In this document: one piece after another, positions 2,003 to 45,309 of the stretch
How the letters are laid out: every line of letters begins with the position of its first letter
Numbering within the stretch: the stretch's first letter is position 1
Assembly (NCBI GenBank): GCA_964594495.1
Contig: CAZQLX010000001.1
Span: forward strand, 1-50,559
Length of the DNA stretch: 50,559 bases
From: Candidatus Woesearchaeota archaeon
GTDB lineage: Archaea > Nanobdellota > Nanobdellia > Pacearchaeales > GW2011-AR1
Direction: 5' to 3'
The notes under the pieces: model-generated
What the model was told of the DNA's origin: nothing
What the model saw: the letters and a program-made list of their open reading frames with translations, nothing else
Database searches by the model: none
Made by a program: the position numbers and the translations under genes

Positions 2003-2904
2003 TAGACATAATTATTACTTCTTATAATGAACCGAAATCAACATTAAGAGCTGTGGAATCGATATTAAAACAAAATGTAAAAGATGAATATAGAATAACA
2101 ATTGTCGATCCCTTTGTTGAAGTTAGAAATTTTTTGAAAAAAGAAGTTAAAGATAAAAGAGTACGTTTTATGCTTGATTCTGGAGAAGGAAAAAGCTATA
2201 TTTTAAATTTACTTTTACAAGAATACGCTTCTTCAAACAAAGATGACTTGTTTATATTTACAGATGGGGATGTTTACATATCTGAAAATGCTATAAATGA
2301 GATATTAGATGCGTTTAAAGATAAAGAAATTGGTTGCGTTACAGGAAAGCCTGTTTCTCTTGATAGTAAAGAGACAAAGTATGGATATTGGCAAGGTGTT
2401 GCTTTTGATGGAATAAATAAAGTAAGAGAAATGTTAGCTAAGGAAAAGAAATTTTTTGAATGTTCGGGCTATTTGTTTGCTATAAGGAAAGGAGTAATAT
2501 TTGATTTTCCCTTAGAAACAAGTGAAGATAGTATCATTCCTTACTTGTTTTGGAAGAAAGGATTCAAAATAGGATATGCTAATAAATCTGAAGTATATGT
2601 TAAAAATCCAGATAATTGGCACGATTGGATTACACAAAAAGTAAGAAATGTTAAGGCACATGAGAACTTAAACAAAATTGCTCCTGAAATGCCTCGAACA
2701 AAAACCTTTTGGAATGAAATAAAATATGGTGCATTATTTACTCTTTTGCAACCGAGAAGCTTAAGACAGATCATCTGGACTATTGAATTGTATTTTGCAA
2801 GATTATATCTTTATATTAGAGCATTTAAGGAACTTAGAAAAAAAGATCATTATAAAGATGGATGGAGAGAAAATTCCATTGAATCAACAAAGACTTTGGA
2901 TTAA
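1999..2904 (+). CDS. Glycosyltransferase family 2
   Basis: It has the N-terminal 'IIITSYNEP' GT-A signature, a 'TDGDV' DxD-type motif, and an ATGA overlap with the upstream ORF. Confidence 0.8.
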   Translation: MIDIIITSYNEPKSTLRAVESILKQNVKDEYRITIVDPFVEVRNFLKKEVKDKRVRFMLDSGEGKSYILNLLLQEYASSNKDDLFIFTDGDVYISENAINEILDAFKDKEIGCVTGKPVSLDSKETKYGYWQGVAFDGINKVREMLAKEKKFFECSGYLFAIRKGVIFDFPLETSEDSIIPYLFWKKGFKIGYANKSEVYVKNPDNWHDWITQKVRNVKAHENLNKIAPEMPRTKTFWNEIKYGALFTLLQPRSLRQIIWTIELYFARLYLYIRAFKELRKKDHYKDGWRENSIESTKTLD

Positions 2905-2905
2905 A

Positions 2906-3484
2906 TTACTTAACTATCCACCAATCTAAATCTTCATAAGTTTTCATGTCAGATGAAAAAACTTTAAGTTTATTCTTTTTTGCGAATTCATCAACGGCTT
3001 TTTTGACATCAGGTATAATGTAATCATGCCCACTTAACACGCCTCCGTCCTTGAGAATTGCAAAATAGAGTTCTAGGTCTTTTTTTACATATTCATATTC
3101 ATGATTTCCATCAATATAGGCAAAATCCACTTTTTCTTTTATAAATGGTAATGCTTCAGATGAAACTTTTCTTATAAAAACAACATTCTTATACTTTTTA
3201 AGTAATCTATGAGAGAAACGACGGTAATAGGGAGCATGAGGTATTTTCTGCTCATCAATATACTCAATGTATGGATCAATTAGGTATAGCTTTTCAATAT
3301 TTAGAGTATCGAGAATTGTTTTTGCATTTTCTCCCATAAAAGTTCCTATCTCTACACCTATCAAAGGTTGATTACCAAAAGTATCTTTAATAAAATAAGT
3401 TGATTTTCTTGGACGCAATTTTGTGAATTTATAACCAAATCTATGGAGAAGATGATTAATTCTGTATTTAAAAAATGAATTCAT
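2906..3484 (-). CDS. Class I SAM-dependent methyltransferase (TylF/Methyltransf_24-like sugar O-methyltransferase family)
   Basis: It has 'GVEIGTFMGENA' (SAM motif I), 'AYIDGNHEYEYV' and 'GGVLSGHDY'. Confidence 0.65.
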   Translation of the reverse strand: MNSFFKYRINHLLHRFGYKFTKLRPRKSTYFIKDTFGNQPLIGVEIGTFMGENAKTILDTLNIEKLYLIDPYIEYIDEQKIPHAPYYRRFSHRLLKKYKNVVFIRKVSSEALPFIKEKVDFAYIDGNHEYEYVKKDLELYFAILKDGGVLSGHDYIIPDVKKAVDEFAKKNKLKVFSSDMKTYEDLDWWIVK

Positions 3485-3537
3485 TAATATTTTATTACTT
3501 GAAGTGTTATAAAGATTATTATTCAGTCATATTATCA

Positions 3538-3948
3538 TTAAATTTCTAATACTCTCTTGATTTTCACTTTAAGTTCGTCTAAAGATGATACAATGGGCAT
3601 TGATGCAATTAAAATAGCACTGAGATATTCTAAACCTTCGTCAGCCGTCTCATCTGTCTTAATTCCTAGTGCTGGAATGCCTTTAGCATATGCATACCCT
3701 AATTCCCATGCTGTACCTGCTCCAACATGTAAACCGTCAAGAGCTGCAATGATTAAATTACAATCTTTAAATCCTTTAACTATGTCTCCTTCGAATACTT
3801 TTTTAACATCTTTTATCGATTTTGCGTAGCCAACATCTCGATGGGGGAGAAATGTCTCTAAACCGAGAGATTTACAGAGTTTATCAATAGATTCAAGCAT
3901 TTCTTTCTCGTTTTTTGTCCATATTTTGCCTGCAATGTAAACTTTCAT
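3538..3948 (-). CDS. Nucleoside 2-deoxyribosyltransferase-like protein
   Basis: It has 'MKVYIAGKI' and 'GAGTAWELGYAYAKGIPALG', typical of the Nuc_deoxyrib_tr fold. Confidence 0.65.
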   Translation of the reverse strand: MKVYIAGKIWTKNEKEMLESIDKLCKSLGLETFLPHRDVGYAKSIKDVKKVFEGDIVKGFKDCNLIIAALDGLHVGAGTAWELGYAYAKGIPALGIKTDETADEGLEYLSAILIASMPIVSSLDELKVKIKRVLEI

Positions 3949-4027
3949 GCTATTGATGTGAATGAGGAAGTTTTAAGCTTTTGGGACAATCGGATAGGCT
4001 TAAAAATGATCTTAGTGATATAGAAAT

Positions 4028-5023
4028 ATGAAAATAGTTGTCATCCAATTAGGAGCGAAGGGAACGGTGGTTAGAACGATGTCAATTCTTCCTGCATTGA
4101 AGAAGAAATACCCAAATGCAAAGATTGATTGGATCACTAAAGATAATGTTAAAGATGTTTTTCTAAATAACCCTTTTGTAAACAAAGTATTAAGTTTACC
4201 ATATAAATATGAGGATAAATATGATCTTTTATACAACTTCGATATAGATAAAGAAGCATGTGAAGTTGCTGTTTCAATAGAAGCAAAAGAGAAAAAAGGA
4301 TTTTATTTTGAAGGGGGATATCCGCAAGCGTTTAACTTGGGAGCAGAATATTATCTCAATACAATGTTTGACGATGAATTGAAAAAGAAAAACAAAAAGA
4401 CTTATCAGCAAATGATTTTTGATGTGGCTGAATTGCCTTTTCAAGGAGAATATTGTCCGATATATTTAAGTGATAAAGAAAAAGAATATGGGGATGCTTT
4501 TATTAAGAAAAATGGATTAAGCAATAAAAAATTAATCGGTATACATATAGGATCTTCTCCAACCTGGCCTTCTAAATCGTGGAATTTAGAATATATAAAC
4601 GATTTTATAAGGCTATCAAAAAAAGAAAAATATGATATTATAGTTTTTAGTGGACCTAATGATAAACAAAGAAGGGAAAAATTAGAAAATGAATTGAAAA
4701 AAGAAAAATTAAATATTGTTTTTAATAATCCTATGAATAGTGATAGAGAATTTGTTTCTTTATTAAATGAATGTACTTATATCGTTTCTGGAGACAGTTT
4801 TGCCTTGCATGTGGCTATTGCATTAGGAAAGAAAACCATAGGTTTGTTTTTCTGTACATCTGATTCTGAAATAGAAGATTATGGATTACTTACTAAGATT
4901 GTATCTCCATTGAGAGATAAATTTTTTCCGGAAAGAATGAATGAGTACAGCGAGGAACTCACGAAAAGCATAACAGCAAAGGAAGTTATGCAAGCTGTTG
5001 AGAATAATAAAGAAAACAAATAA
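4028..5023 (+). CDS. Glycosyltransferase family 9 (heptosyltransferase-like)
   Basis: It has the N-terminal 'IVVIQLGAKGTVVRTMSILPALKKKYPNAKIDWIT' and the C-terminal 'GDSFALHVAIALGKKTIGLF', which match the GT9 pattern. Confidence 0.75.
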   Translation: MKIVVIQLGAKGTVVRTMSILPALKKKYPNAKIDWITKDNVKDVFLNNPFVNKVLSLPYKYEDKYDLLYNFDIDKEACEVAVSIEAKEKKGFYFEGGYPQAFNLGAEYYLNTMFDDELKKKNKKTYQQMIFDVAELPFQGEYCPIYLSDKEKEYGDAFIKKNGLSNKKLIGIHIGSSPTWPSKSWNLEYINDFIRLSKKEKYDIIVFSGPNDKQRREKLENELKKEKLNIVFNNPMNSDREFVSLLNECTYIVSGDSFALHVAIALGKKTIGLFFCTSDSEIEDYGLLTKIVSPLRDKFFPERMNEYSEELTKSITAKEVMQAVENNKENK

Positions 5024-26285: not shown

Positions 26286-26879
26286 TTTAATCTCTTTTAT
26301 TTGAATTAATATTAAACTGAATAAATAAACCTTGCTAGTCTGCTCTCGGTGTGTAATTTGAGGAAAAATTTTTCAATTTTAGTTGACTTATCTTTTCCTT
26401 TTTAACTGTATTAATTTTCTTTACTACTTCTTTTCTTAATTTGAAAGTATTTTCCCATTTTGCATAAGCTTGCTAACCTTCATAACTTTCCATCATTTCT
26501 CTATAAGATACCTCTCCTTTGTCAAAATTAACAATTTGCTTAAACATTTTTTTAACATTTCTTTTTCTTAATAATTTGTATTTATAGAAATTTCTAAAAC
26601 CAAGAAAATCTATTCCTTGAGATAAAGGAATAACTTTTGATTTATCTTTGTGCAACTCGATGCACAGATTTTTCTTAAGAAAATTATTTATTTCATATTG
26701 CCAAATAATTAATTGCTCTTTTGACTTATGTAAAATCACGAAATCATCCACATATCTAATATAATATTTTGCTTTGAGACCATGTTTAACAAAATAATCC
26801 AGCTCATTAAGATAAATATTAGCAAAAAACTGTGAAGTTAAATTACCAAGAGGCATGCCTTTGTGGCATGCGGAAGTTA

Positions 26880-26895
26880 CTCTCTCTCTCTCTCT
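26880..26895 (-). repeat. (AG)8 dinucleotide tract (CT8 on the plus strand) at the second RT frameshift
   Basis: Read directly from the sequence. The frame change between RT pieces 2 and 3 maps to this tract. Confidence 0.9.
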
Positions 26896-27328
26896 TCATT
26901 TTGAAGTTCGTATTAATGGTATTCTTTAATATTTTTTCTATTAAAAAGATCACATCTCTATCGATTATTGTTTTTTTAATTATGCTTGATAAGATATTGT
27001 GGTTAATTTCCTCAAAATAGTGCTTAATATCTGCTTTGAGACAATAACCCGTAATATAATTGCAATCTCTAAATGTATTTTTAGCAACTAGACCATTATT
27101 TGAAACTTTCCTCTTAAAATAATCGAATCTTTGTAAAGCAAATAAACCCCCCTTCCCTTTTCTGTTAGCGCATGAATCATATATAAATTTTCTATCGAAA
27201 AGAGATTCTATGATATTACAAAGAGCATGATGAACAATGCGATCTCTAAAATCAGACTTAGATATCTTACGTGTTTTTGGGTCTCTTAGAATAAAATTCT
27301 TAAGAAATTTTGGATTATAGGTTTTATA

Positions 27329-27368
27329 TTTAAGTTCATAATGTAAAGTTTAAGTTCATAATGTAAAG
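27329..27368 (-). repeat. Perfect 20-bp tandem duplication (2 x TTTAAGTTCATAATGTAAAG, plus strand) inside the RT
   Basis: Positions 27329-27348 are identical to 27349-27368. Each copy encodes 'LHYELK', in two different frames. Confidence 0.95.
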
Positions 27369-27532
27369 CCATTAAATTATAAAAGATATTATTTTCAAAT
27401 TCAATAACATAACTCTTTTTGGTCTTTCCTTTTCTTGCTTTTTTCCAAGCTAATATTAAATTCTCAAAAGAAATGACTTTTTTGTATAAGTTGTTATATG
27501 CAATCATTATAAAAGTCCTAGCCAGTGCTGAG

Positions 27533-27622
27533 CCATTCGACCATTACTGTTGGAATCGTCTAACCTGTTGTTCCAATTGGCGTTCCAGTTGCCGTTCCTG
27601 TTACGGTACAGCCTGAGAAAGC
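27533..27622 (-). repeat. DGR template repeat (TR), non-coding, about 90 nt (boundaries +/- a few nt)
   Basis: It aligns with 27944-28039. It is rich in AAC/AAT codons (9 Asn codons in the VR frame) and ends 25 nt upstream of the RT ATG. Confidence 0.85.
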
Positions 27623-27800
27623 TTATTTAGCCAATTAATCAAGATATCACTGTTGTTTCATATTTCAGTTCGGTTTCTCAAAAACCTCATAATTTACTTA
27701 ATGTTACAACTGTATTTTATAACTCTTAAGAGAGCCGTAATTAAATGACATGTGGCCCAGCCATTAAATGGCTAGGAAAAATAACAAGAGACAATCATTT

Positions 27801-28610
27801 TTAAATTAATGCTTTAAGACTTTTTTGAAATTCTGCTAATCTTGCTTTTTGTGTTTGCCTCAAGACTTCAATTCTAGTATCATCGATATCTCTAACCATT
27901 TGTTCTAAATTTTCTGCGGTGGCTTCGCCACATACAAAATCACCCACCCGACCAACACTGCCGGAATCGCCCAACCTGCCGTGCCAATCGGCGTACCAGC
28001 CACAGCCCCCGCCCCCGCCACGGCACAGCCTGAGAAAGCCCGATTTTGCTCTAAAGGGAAAATTAGCTTCCAGAAATTTTTGAGCTTTTTCTCCAGAAAG
28101 AATTTCCGGGTTATTTTTAGAAGCTATAAGATTTATACCATAAGAATTTTCTCCTTTTTTCAAATCGAACGCCTTAAAAGAAGGAAAAACAATAGGAAAC
28201 TCTCGACCTTTCATTTGTACCCTTATAGATTTAGCAAACTCTTCGTTTGGCGAATCTACACTATAAAGGACAGCTCCTATGTCCCTATAAACTCCATTAG
28301 TCAATTTTTCAAATTTATCTAAAACTTTAAATTCTTTAACACCGGGCAACCACAATTGATTATTACTTTTTCTAGCCCATTCTTGATTTATTAGAATGCC
28401 AAGAAAGATATAACTCCCTTCATTCTCGCCTGTTTGTGGATTATACTTAAAGTATCCTTTAAATCCAATAGATTCTGGAAATTCTTGCGCGATTCTTGTT
28501 TGAACTGACTCGGCAATTCCTTTATTTTCTTCTGCAGTTGTAGTTCTTGCATATCTAAACTTCTTACTTTTAGAATTATACCATAATGGAACTAATTGAG
28601 CTTCTATCAT
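27801..28610 (-). CDS. DGR target (variable) protein, 269 aa, with VR at about residues 191-223
   Basis: The intact ORF contains the VR, which encodes 'GFLRLCRGGGGGCGWYADWHGRLGDSGSVGRVG'. The TR-encoded version 'FLRLYRNRNGNWNANWNNRLDDSNSNGRM' resembles the 'R(V/L)xRGGSWNNN' VR of C-type-lectin-fold DGR targets. Confidence 0.8.
   Translation of the reverse strand: MIEAQLVPLWYNSKSKKFRYARTTTAEENKGIAESVQTRIAQEFPESIGFKGYFKYNPQTGENEGSYIFLGILINQEWARKSNNQLWLPGVKEFKVLDKFEKLTNGVYRDIGAVLYSVDSPNEEFAKSIRVQMKGREFPIVFPSFKAFDLKKGENSYGINLIASKNNPEILSGEKAQKFLEANFPFRAKSGFLRLCRGGGGGCGWYADWHGRLGDSGSVGRVGDFVCGEATAENLEQMVRDIDDTRIEVLRQTQKARLAEFQKSLKALI
27944..28039 (-). repeat. DGR variable repeat (VR), about 96 nt, inside CDS 27801..28610
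   Basis: By hand alignment it differs from the TR at 21 of 28 TR adenines, at 1 of 62 other positions, and by a 6-nt insertion. It is a local GC-rich spike in an AT-rich genome. Confidence 0.85.
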
Positions 28611-44475: not shown

Positions 44476-45309
44476 ATGGCAAGAACAAAAAAAGAAAAAA
44501 AAGTTGAAAAAACATCAAAAACTGATGAAACGCCTAAAGAAAGTGTTAAAGAAACAAAAGTAGAGGGAAAAAGTACTGATGAAATAGAAGAAAAATTAAA
44601 AGCAGAAACAAATGTATCTCAAAAACAAAAAGATAGCACTCTAATATGGATATTTGCAGTCATGGTACTCATCATAATCGGTGTTTTAGTAGGATACTTT
44701 GTTGGTAAGGGGGGGCAAAGTTTTACTTACGAAGGATTGAAATTTACAAAAGAAAAATTCGGAGAAATTCCTGTATTTCACTATTATTATTTTTATGAAA
44801 GTGAAAAAGGGAACTTAGTACAGTATAATTTATACTTAAGAAAGGACCCTAGACAAAATCAAATACCTGTTGAAGGAAATATATATTACCCTAAAGATAA
44901 ATTTGTTTATATTAGCGTAAATGGAACGGGCTTAACTCAATGCGAAGATAGTAGTCTCGCAGTACATACGTTAGCCGCTTTTCTTACAAATAATGAGATC
45001 GTGGTAAAAGGAGCGACTCCTAATTTTAATGAAACAAATGGCACGAATATTCGATTTGCAAACTGCCAAACCCACCCTAATAATGTTGTTATTTTGATTC
45101 AAGCTGGAAATACGACGAGAATTTACAAAGAAGCGAACACAAACGGATGTCATGTAATTGAGGTATCAGACTGCCAAATTCTTGACGCTATTGAAAAATT
45201 TGAGGTTCAATCGGTTTTAGATGCTAAAGGTAATGAATCTGAAGTGTCGGACACCCAAAATAAGCCTCAAAGCTTTTACGCTTTGAATCTTACAAATACA
45301 ACTAATTAA
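44476..45309 (+). CDS. Membrane-anchored extracellular protein with lysine/glutamate-rich cytoplasmic N-tail, hypothetical
   Basis: It has a TM anchor 'LIWIFAVMVLIIIGVLVGYFV' and multiple N-x-S/T sequons. Its C-terminal region resembles that of 43849..44445. Confidence 0.55.
   Translation: MARTKKEKKVEKTSKTDETPKESVKETKVEGKSTDEIEEKLKAETNVSQKQKDSTLIWIFAVMVLIIIGVLVGYFVGKGGQSFTYEGLKFTKEKFGEIPVFHYYYFYESEKGNLVQYNLYLRKDPRQNQIPVEGNIYYPKDKFVYISVNGTGLTQCEDSSLAVHTLAAFLTNNEIVVKGATPNFNETNGTNIRFANCQTHPNNVVILIQAGNTTRIYKEANTNGCHVIEVSDCQILDAIEKFEVQSVLDAKGNESEVSDTQNKPQSFYALNLTNTTN

Follow-up and report, generated by a model that had tools for sequence, protein, structure and literature searches.

Is the repeat pair of a diversity-generating retroelement (DGR), when it lies beside a reverse transcriptase (RT) gene, the sign of a working diversifier or the trace of a former one? 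This question arises at a locus in the first 50,559 nt of contig CAZQLX010000001.1 (GenBank assembly GCA_964594495.1) of a Candidatus Woesearchaeota archaeon; this whole stretch is here called the window. A sequence-only reading had noticed a template repeat (TR) and a variable repeat (VR) with adenine-specific mismatches upstream of an RT, and had taken the set for a DGR. The results presented below make us confident that the locus is a chromosomal DGR of the Nanoarchaeota/DPANN type whose VR was once diversified and which has since been inactivated in cis, with the target gene still intact. Since the RT is a pseudogene carrying three lesions, the TR/VR pair is most likely a fossil of past retrohoming and not a working diversifier. 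The hypervariable gene is probably frozen now.

Architecture of the cassette and its repeat pair

The cassette upstream of the RT consists of the following elements, among them the IMH (initiation of mutagenic homing) site and its counterpart IMH*:

27801..28610, minus strand: coding sequence (CDS) of the target, i.e. the variable protein; intact, 269 aa; the VR is internal, and a helix of some 48 aa forms the C-terminus behind it
27944..28039, minus strand: VR, 96 nt, within the target CDS
28009→28004, minus strand: 6-nt insertion specific to the VR relative to the TR, inside GGCGGGGGCGGGGGC (28019→28005)
27944..27953, minus strand: IMH GGTCGGGTGG, the 3′ end of the VR
27931→27919, minus strand: hairpin GTGGC-GAA-GCCAC with a 5-bp stem and a GRA triloop, 12 nt after the VR
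27776→27622, minus strand: RT-16 RNA (Rfam RF03019), scoring 93.1 bits (gathering score 50), matched over model positions 1-158 of 158
27622→27533, minus strand: TR, 90 nt, with 28 adenines and, in the VR frame, 8 AAC and 2 AAT codons
27542→27533, minus strand: IMH* GGTCGAATGG, the last 10 nt of the TR

Read along the minus strand, the target CDS is followed by a 24-nt spacer, the 155-nt RT-16 RNA, the TR, a 25-nt spacer and the RT start at 27507, and no open reading frame (ORF) intervenes among target, RT-16, TR and RT. The arrangement claimed by the sequence-only reading, with target (VR), TR and RT on one strand, is borne out, and no anatomical hallmark of a DGR is missing: the repeats differ at adenines, the RT has LGNLTSQ and YVDD, and the IMH/IMH* pair and a hairpin 3′ of the VR are present. 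The VR lies inside an intact ORF encoding 269 aa, the TR is rich in AAC and AAT codons in the VR frame, the distance from the TR to the ATG of the RT is indeed 25 nt, and relatives with the same cassette exist. The statement that such elements are known from DPANN archaea agrees with the published Nanoarchaeota DGRs. Inspection of ORFs revealed no Avd-like ORF between target and RT or directly after the RT, either in the window or in the relatives, an inspection that covered the cassettes alone.

In a computed global alignment of the two repeats, the VR has another base opposite 21 of the 28 TR adenines (18 A>G, 2 A>T and 1 A>C), and a single non-adenine position out of 62 differs (C>T). The earlier hand count, including one 6-nt indel, is reproduced exactly, and the mismatches, when tabulated by TR base, are strongly enriched at adenines (Fisher exact p = 1.4e-13). 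Not all of the 21 adenine mismatches can be credited to mutagenesis: 19 stand as stochastic substitutions, and the other two belong to a fixed difference between IMH* and IMH. In all 13 TR/VR pairs extracted from relatives GGGT in the IMH is opposed to GAAT in the IMH*; in the window this difference reads ..CGAATGG in the TR and ..CGGGTGG in the VR. The position of the VR insertion is ambiguous within GGCGGGGGCGGGGGC; when it is taken as an exact tandem duplicate of GGGGGC, the number of non-adenine substitutions becomes two instead of one. Scanning the window with the TR adenines as wildcards uncovered no TR or VR beyond this single pair. The G+C content of the VR is 70%, compared with 33% for the genome. 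The repeat pair alone is of limited interest, as it adds a decayed DPANN DGR to a known class; a tract in the RT gene and the placement of the RT-16 RNA hold more promise.

The hairpin 3′ of the VR sits within the invariant target codons VCGEAT, and in 24 distinct relatives its nucleotides are nearly invariant, synonymous sites included. In a computed fold the expected stem forms. The hairpin uses GGC and GCC, which are rare codons in the genome (11% and 13%). Both features of the site have been described for Nanoarchaeota DGRs, in which an IMH TGGGGT is paired with an IMH* TGGAAT and a hairpin with a GRA trinucleotide loop lies within the target gene (Paul et al. 2015, PMC4372165).

In its active state, the cassette would have been transcribed into an RNA made up of the RT-16 leader, the TR and a short stretch 3′ of it, which the adjacent RT would have reverse-transcribed with misincorporation opposite the template adenines. 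The resulting cDNA would then have replaced the VR of the upstream target gene, with direction and target recognition presumably provided by the difference between IMH (GGGT) and IMH* (GAAT) together with the GAA-triloop hairpin. This course of events is modelled on established DGR knowledge; that the VR was written in the past can be read directly from the two repeats.

The reverse transcriptase is a pseudogene

The RT region and its lesions are as follows:

26335..27507, minus strand: RT pseudogene of the DGR/Nanoarchaeota clade, with the motifs LGNLTSQ and YVDD
27368→27329, minus strand: lesion 1, a perfect tandem duplication of 20 nt, 2 x CTTTACATTATGAACTTAAA, that shifts the frame
26895→26880, minus strand: lesion 2, an (AG)8 tract in a loop that precedes the PLGN codons (P of GMPLGNLTSQ) by 26 nt
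26475→26473, minus strand: lesion 3, an in-frame change of TGG to TAG at the conserved Trp of the motif ..F/YQGW(N/Q)AYAKW.. of the relatives

The DGR-type motif 4 LGNLTSQ, by which the RT had been recognised, is present, and so is YVDD. Yet the RT is a pseudogene with three lesions. The ORF list for the region contains merely fragments of 73 and 127 aa, and according to three-frame translation and tblastn the RT is spread over frames -1, -3 and -1. One added AG unit puts the (AG)8 tract back in frame, and the TAG codon cuts off the last 45 aa. When one copy of the duplication was removed, one AG unit added and the Trp restored, we obtained a reconstructed RT of 384 aa that matches RVT_1 at 3e-18 and is colinear with P0017, an intact relative to which it is 70% identical over 365 aa. 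As three corrections suffice to make the reconstruction colinear with an intact relative, there are just three lesions and the decay is recent. The RT family comprises more than 7,900 DPANN relatives, the closest of which are RTs of Nanoarchaeota and Pacearchaeota. With respect to the first lesion, it may be added that a duplication of 20 nt is of the slippage type, so that one copy might in principle be lost again; the TAG mutation has no such way back.

Some 50 genes around the cassette are intact, including those for PGK, GAPDH, a sugar kinase, a 2-hydroxyacid dehydrogenase, phosphoribosyl pyrophosphate (PRPP) synthase and transketolase; an archaeal STT3 is also found in the window, some 10 kb from the cassette. 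Only one ORF-free gap longer than 400 nt, at 26857-27800, occurs in the 50.5 kb. Because the neighbours are intact and the gap is the only one, the lesions can be ascribed to the RT itself and not to a generally faulty sequence. A reassignment of TAG was considered and rejected, since TAG is an ordinary stop in the window that terminates 5 of the 48 long ORFs. A tblastn search of the 50.5-kb window revealed no second RT. For metagenomic surveys it follows from this locus that DGR calls made from a TR/VR pair plus an RT motif can hide dead cassettes.

Is the variable repeat frozen?

The series of events that may have led to the present state would have begun with slippage at the simple-sequence tract, a probably reversible change that is seen in relatives and that would have switched the RT OFF. 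The silent RT would next have accumulated lesions that are largely irreversible, and meanwhile the frozen VR would have gained a 6-nt slippage insertion in its G-rich run and one or two non-adenine substitutions. Both the indel and the non-adenine change fit a frozen VR because fresh retrohoming would have erased them.

Several points weigh against this reading. The order of the three lesions is one that we infer. Furthermore, TR and VR are nearly identical at non-adenine positions, so either the inactivation is recent or occasional homing continues. DGRs of the candidate phyla radiation (CPR) and of DPANN archaea often show non-adenine substitutions, and some lineages have 3n indels (Wu et al. 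2018); the indel in the window therefore supports inactivity but is no proof of it. It is also important to note that the states of VR and tract are those of the assembled sequence, and that the window covers 50.5 kb of the genome, so that the intact RT of another DGR could act in trans.

If such a functional RT of a second DGR elsewhere in the genome acted on the RT-16/TR RNA, the cassette would still be diversifying. One DGR can serve several targets, and here RT-16, TR, IMH*, IMH and hairpin are all intact, TR and VR agree at 61 of 62 non-adenine positions, and some relatives have kept TR and RT-16 after the loss of the RT. We nevertheless regard this scenario as improbable. The 50.5 kb at hand are devoid of a second RT, the 6-nt insertion and the non-adenine mismatch in the VR would be overwritten by fresh homing, and no relative with an intact RT has such an indel. 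In addition, DGR RTs are reportedly specific to their own RNA scaffold (Handa et al. bioRxiv).

A second way to rescue the RT would be to regard it as functional in cis, either because the lesions are assembly or sequencing errors or because they are recoded by transcriptional or ribosomal slippage on (AG)8 and read-through of TAG. Slippage-prone tracts are classic sites both of sequencing error and of programmed slippage. RTs split at the tract site are very common in the relatives, and apart from its lesions the RT is well conserved. However, three different and independent defects are crowded into 1.2 kb next to some 50 intact genes; the exact 20-nt tandem duplication is atypical of a read or assembly error, and no slippery site corrects it. 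Read-through is at odds with the use of TAG as a terminator by the 5 long ORFs mentioned above, and the shift that would be needed at the tract is +1/-2 in the window and in L047 (related loci are designated by L numbers), -1/+2 in L002 and L005, and +1 in L049. Taken together, we consider a functional RT in cis very unlikely. Finally, ordinary paralogous or gene-conversion repeats without any retrohoming, for which nothing speaks except that a repeat exists, can practically be dismissed given mismatches at 21 of 28 adenines against 1 of 62 other positions, a non-coding copy wedged between an RT-associated RNA and an RT, and the same asymmetry in every relative (176 adenine against 8 non-adenine substitutions).

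Diversification and decay in related loci

The TR/VR pairs of the relatives comprise 292 TR adenine positions, and of the 176 adenine substitutions among them 141 are to G (80%), 30 to T and 5 to C. For the window the share of G is 18 of 21. This skew was noted in the pairs of the window, L001, L002, L005, L008, L009, L013, L018, L024, L035 and L036. As the A>G bias is family-wide, the G-rich VR of the window is a family trait. The number of non-adenine mismatches per relative is 0-1, and none of the relatives' pairs contains an indel between TR and VR, which makes the window the only member with one. The A>G skew gives rise to VRs rich in Gly and Asp; its source may be a misincorporation bias of the RT or selection.

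Signs of live diversification accompany an intact RT: L009 and L013, which represent the same lineage in two samples, have differing VRs. A VR differs, too, within the L051/L052 population, where an intact and a split RT allele coexist. In the lineage of L002, with its frameshifted RT, the VR is identical in at least three assemblies. Across the target family the loci form a series of DGR decay stages, with repeated loss or reduction of the RT and an intact target. The RT is intact in L001, L009/L013, L018, L035 and L039, and it is split at the same loop in the window, L002 (= L004 = L007) and L005 (= L040). Only remnants of the RT are left in L023/L038, L017 and L008. In L011 (/L045) and L036/L044 the RT is absent and RT-16 and TR are kept. 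L025-L032, L041 and L042 likewise count among the loci with a lost or reduced RT. Many further loci lack the RT as well, including L019; in L019, the one locus of this last group that was checked, neither RT-16 nor TR was detected. The target family thus records repeated RT loss with retention of the diversified gene.

A simple-sequence tract in the RT loop

The second lesion deserves closer attention, as its site of frameshift is common to the window, L002 and L005, where the repeats are (AG)8, G8 (7691-7698 in L002) and (AG)6 (7652-7663 in L005), respectively. In the window, (AG)8 is the sole dinucleotide run of at least five units. As an aside, the window has only one other homopolymer of G or C with at least seven residues, a G7 run at 44709-44715. 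The intact RTs that adjoin this target family have no tract at this loop. In the wider RT family, the loop encodes RERE.. or GGG.. in 28 of 117 intact top matches.

We searched with the C-terminal 140 aa of the RT and found 120 short ORFs that represent C-terminal halves, many of them on contigs of 50-308 kb. Among the 64 half ORFs with an informative N-terminus, 36 start with RERE or GGG runs, and prefixes such as MRTLE and MRTSG are an out-of-frame reading of the conserved upstream NANF(E/G). For five half ORFs, a full-length protein with 99-100% identity exists; there are four such partners, and the loop of each is encoded by a simple-sequence repeat (SSR). Pairs of an intact and a split allele could be compared at the nucleotide level:

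L046 (intact, (AG)9, 745-762) and L047 (split, (AG)8, 2010-2025): 1,568 nt aligned, 0 other differences
L048 (intact, G9, 1005-1013) and L049 (split, G10, 1050-1059) or L050 (split, G10): 1,763-1,817 nt aligned, at most 1 mismatch
L051 (intact, G12, 3238-3249) and L052 (split, G10, 1439-1448): 4,428 nt aligned, 20 substitutions clustered in a VR plus 2 others
L053 (intact, G12, 2771-2782) and L054 (split, G11, 2474-2484): 3,897 nt aligned, 1 mismatch

Short reads are prone to error in poly-G tracts of 10-12 residues, and the (AG)8/(AG)9 pair is the cleanest case. The (AG)8 tract of the window is orthologous to the tract of L046 and L047, with which it shares the loop NF-M-(K/Q)-RERERV, and its length equals the OFF length of L047. 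L051 and L052 are replicate samples from one site (Hainich H51 R1, R2), and the VR in which they differ (2147-2248 in L051) belongs to another target type.

When long tracts were defined as dinucleotide runs of at least six units or G/C runs of at least eight, all 11 distinct long tracts in 327,673 nt (the window and 54 loci) were located 18-28 nt upstream of the PLGN codons, and none elsewhere. The tract codons GAG and GGG are disfavoured by the genome. Programmed ribosomal frameshifting at the tract was rejected as a general explanation, since the required shift differs in sign between lineages. This difference in the frame correction favours stochastic changes of tract length. How frequent split RTs are is best judged from the small target-anchored sample, the unbiased one, in which 3 of 8 RT-bearing lineages have an RT split at the tract. 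No unbiased split fraction can be taken from the C-terminal-half search, which is length-biased (short ORFs only, with known full-length relatives omitted), or from the search of RT representatives, which mixes fragments and has no contig information.

On the basis of these tract lengths and positions, we tentatively propose, at somewhat less than even odds, that the Nanoarchaeota-type DGR RT carries a selected hypermutable (AG)n/Gn tract in the loop directly ahead of motif 4, at which slippage by single units would toggle the RT, and hence hypermutation, ON and OFF stochastically, as a phase-variation switch acting on a mutator; the window would then represent an OFF allele that subsequently decayed. 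Alternatively, the tract may be merely a mutational hot-spot and not a selected switch. In the literature searched, which excluded subscription journals, we found no description of SSRs or phase variation in a DGR RT. If the proposal is true, a frame-toggling tract in the RT of at least four lineages would be a concrete and testable way to restrain or time DGR hypermutation.

RT-16 RNA as a probable 5′ leader of the TR

In 16 related loci the RT-16 RNA stops where the TR starts, including those with other target families and those without an RT. The motif was also located at the following positions, among others:

L001, 6829-7034: RT-16 RNA
L002, 6826-6994: RT-16 RNA
L008, 1774-1941: RT-16 RNA
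L009, 4272-4468: RT-16 RNA
L047, 1155-1323: RT-16 RNA
L051, 2352-2531: RT-16 RNA
L053, 1914-2083: RT-16 RNA

RT-16 is retained in L011, L036 and L023, which have lost the RT. When the motif was reported, it was one of 19 found near RT genes and had no function assigned; some of these motifs were speculated to belong to DGRs, and RT-10 alone was linked to a DGR (Weinberg et al. 2017, PMC5737381). With this position, the orphan Rfam motif can be given a place in archaeal DGRs without Avd, where it would lead into the TR at the 5′ side of the template RNA.

The leader also appears to be connected with the far side of the TR:

27516..27535, minus strand: conserved post-TR segments UGGCUCAGC and CUGGCUAGGA (UGGCUAGG), complementary to both arms of the first RT-16 hairpin (27776→27756)

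In the window, the long-range pairs are CCUAGCCA/UGGCUAGG and GCUGGGCCA/UGGCUCAGC, and they form in the minimum free energy fold of leader, TR and flank. Compensatory pairing is found in L047 (GCUAAGGCCA/UGGCCUUAGC and GUCUUAG/CUAAGAC) and in L051 (AACUUGGGC/GCCCAAGUU), and L024 has two compensatory changes. L001, L035 and L011 each have one mismatch in the pairing. When ranked by duplex energy, the native combination comes first of 16 for L047 and likewise for L051, in a ranking that leaves out L036, L011 and L018. Folding energies give z = -2.1 for the RNA of leader, TR and flank and z = -1.4 for the hairpin in the target gene. As both values are weak by themselves, the case for the hairpin and for the RNA structure rests on conservation and covariation. 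We conclude that a putative long-range duplex brackets leader and TR. By analogy, this pairing may correspond to the distal duplex between upstream and downstream segments that is required for cDNA synthesis from the Bordetella phage DGR RNA (Handa et al. bioRxiv), or it may act in a conformational switch between hairpin and long-range pairing.

Comparison with known systems

With this cassette, the already described Nanoarchaeota DGR class gains a new member, though a decayed one. Like the Nanoarchaeota DUSEL4 DGRs and AvpA, its target has an internal VR and a helical tail, of about 46 aa there and about 48 aa here (PMC4372165, PMC5006420). Further shared traits are the GRA-triloop hairpin inside the target gene, the pairing of an IMH ..GGGT with an IMH* ..GAAT, an RT of the Nanoarchaeota RT family, and a small target (~260 aa) that is unclassifiable from its sequence. 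The likeness to AvpA lies in the layout (size, VR position and tail); in sequence, no similarity of the target family to a PDB chain was detected, and this holds for AvpA as well. The window differs from the class in that its RT is a pseudogene and the cassette has no Avd-like ORF.

With the system of the Bordetella phage BPP-1 (Mtd/TR/Avd/bRT) the cassette has in common the flow from TR to VR, the adenine-specific substitutions, an AAC-rich TR, the IMH/IMH* pair and a hairpin 3′ of the VR. There is also an analogy at the RNA level: the BPP-1 template RNA needs flanking structured RNA and the distal duplex (Handa et al. bioRxiv), and here the RT-16 leader and the co-varying pairing may correspond to them. 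On the other hand, the host of the cassette is an archaeon with the element on its chromosome, not a phage, and the 155-nt RT-16 RNA stands between target and TR where the Avd gene would be. Moreover, the hairpin of the window is a triloop within coding sequence, the VR is not C-terminal, and the substitutions are strongly A>G (18 of 21, and 80% in the family).

The RT-16 motif as originally described (PMC5737381) agrees with the present one in that an RT gene follows downstream and the match spans the full model and exceeds the gathering score; its 3′ end is here tied to the 5′ end of the TR (16 loci), whereas the original description assigned it no function. With respect to the tract, the closest parallel is provided by the SSR contingency loci of Neisseria, Haemophilus and Campylobacter. 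There, too, an intragenic homopolymer or dinucleotide tract toggles the frame by single-unit changes, ON and OFF alleles occur in otherwise identical DNA (here in the relatives only), and the tract consists of genome-disfavoured codons. The gene that would be switched here, however, is the mutator enzyme of a DGR and not a surface or restriction-modification gene, and the host is an uncultured archaeon. Here ON and OFF stand for tract lengths, and in the window the tract is joined by two further lesions.

The target protein

Neither Pfam nor NCBIfam yielded a match to the target protein. Its family consists of 16 clusters of unannotated proteins of about 265 aa that share the scaffold GNSGVxRLxRxxxGxWxAxWxxLGxSxxxGRVDWVCGEAT, and the family loci, from metagenomes and GTDB genomes, fall in metagenome-assembled genomes of Woesearchaeota and Nanoarchaeota. 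A confident AlphaFold2 model of the target (pLDDT 87.6, pTM 0.83) has its helix at residues 232-268. A family profile gave 0 matches at E<=10 against the PDB sequences, and a Foldseek search of PDB and BFVD with the model gave nothing below E = 0.1 (best 0.12 in PDB and 0.16 in BFVD). Weak FGE-sulfatase-like Foldseek rows reached a TM score of only ~0.3. Judging from the model, the protein may have either a very divergent fold like that of C-type lectins or a fold that is new among the carriers of DGR variable regions.

Two tandem paralogous target genes are present in L001 (5210-6804), in L009/L013 (about 2600-4241) and in L010, L012 and L015. In these tandems each VR matches one shared TR, and the VRs of L009 and L013 differ in both copies.

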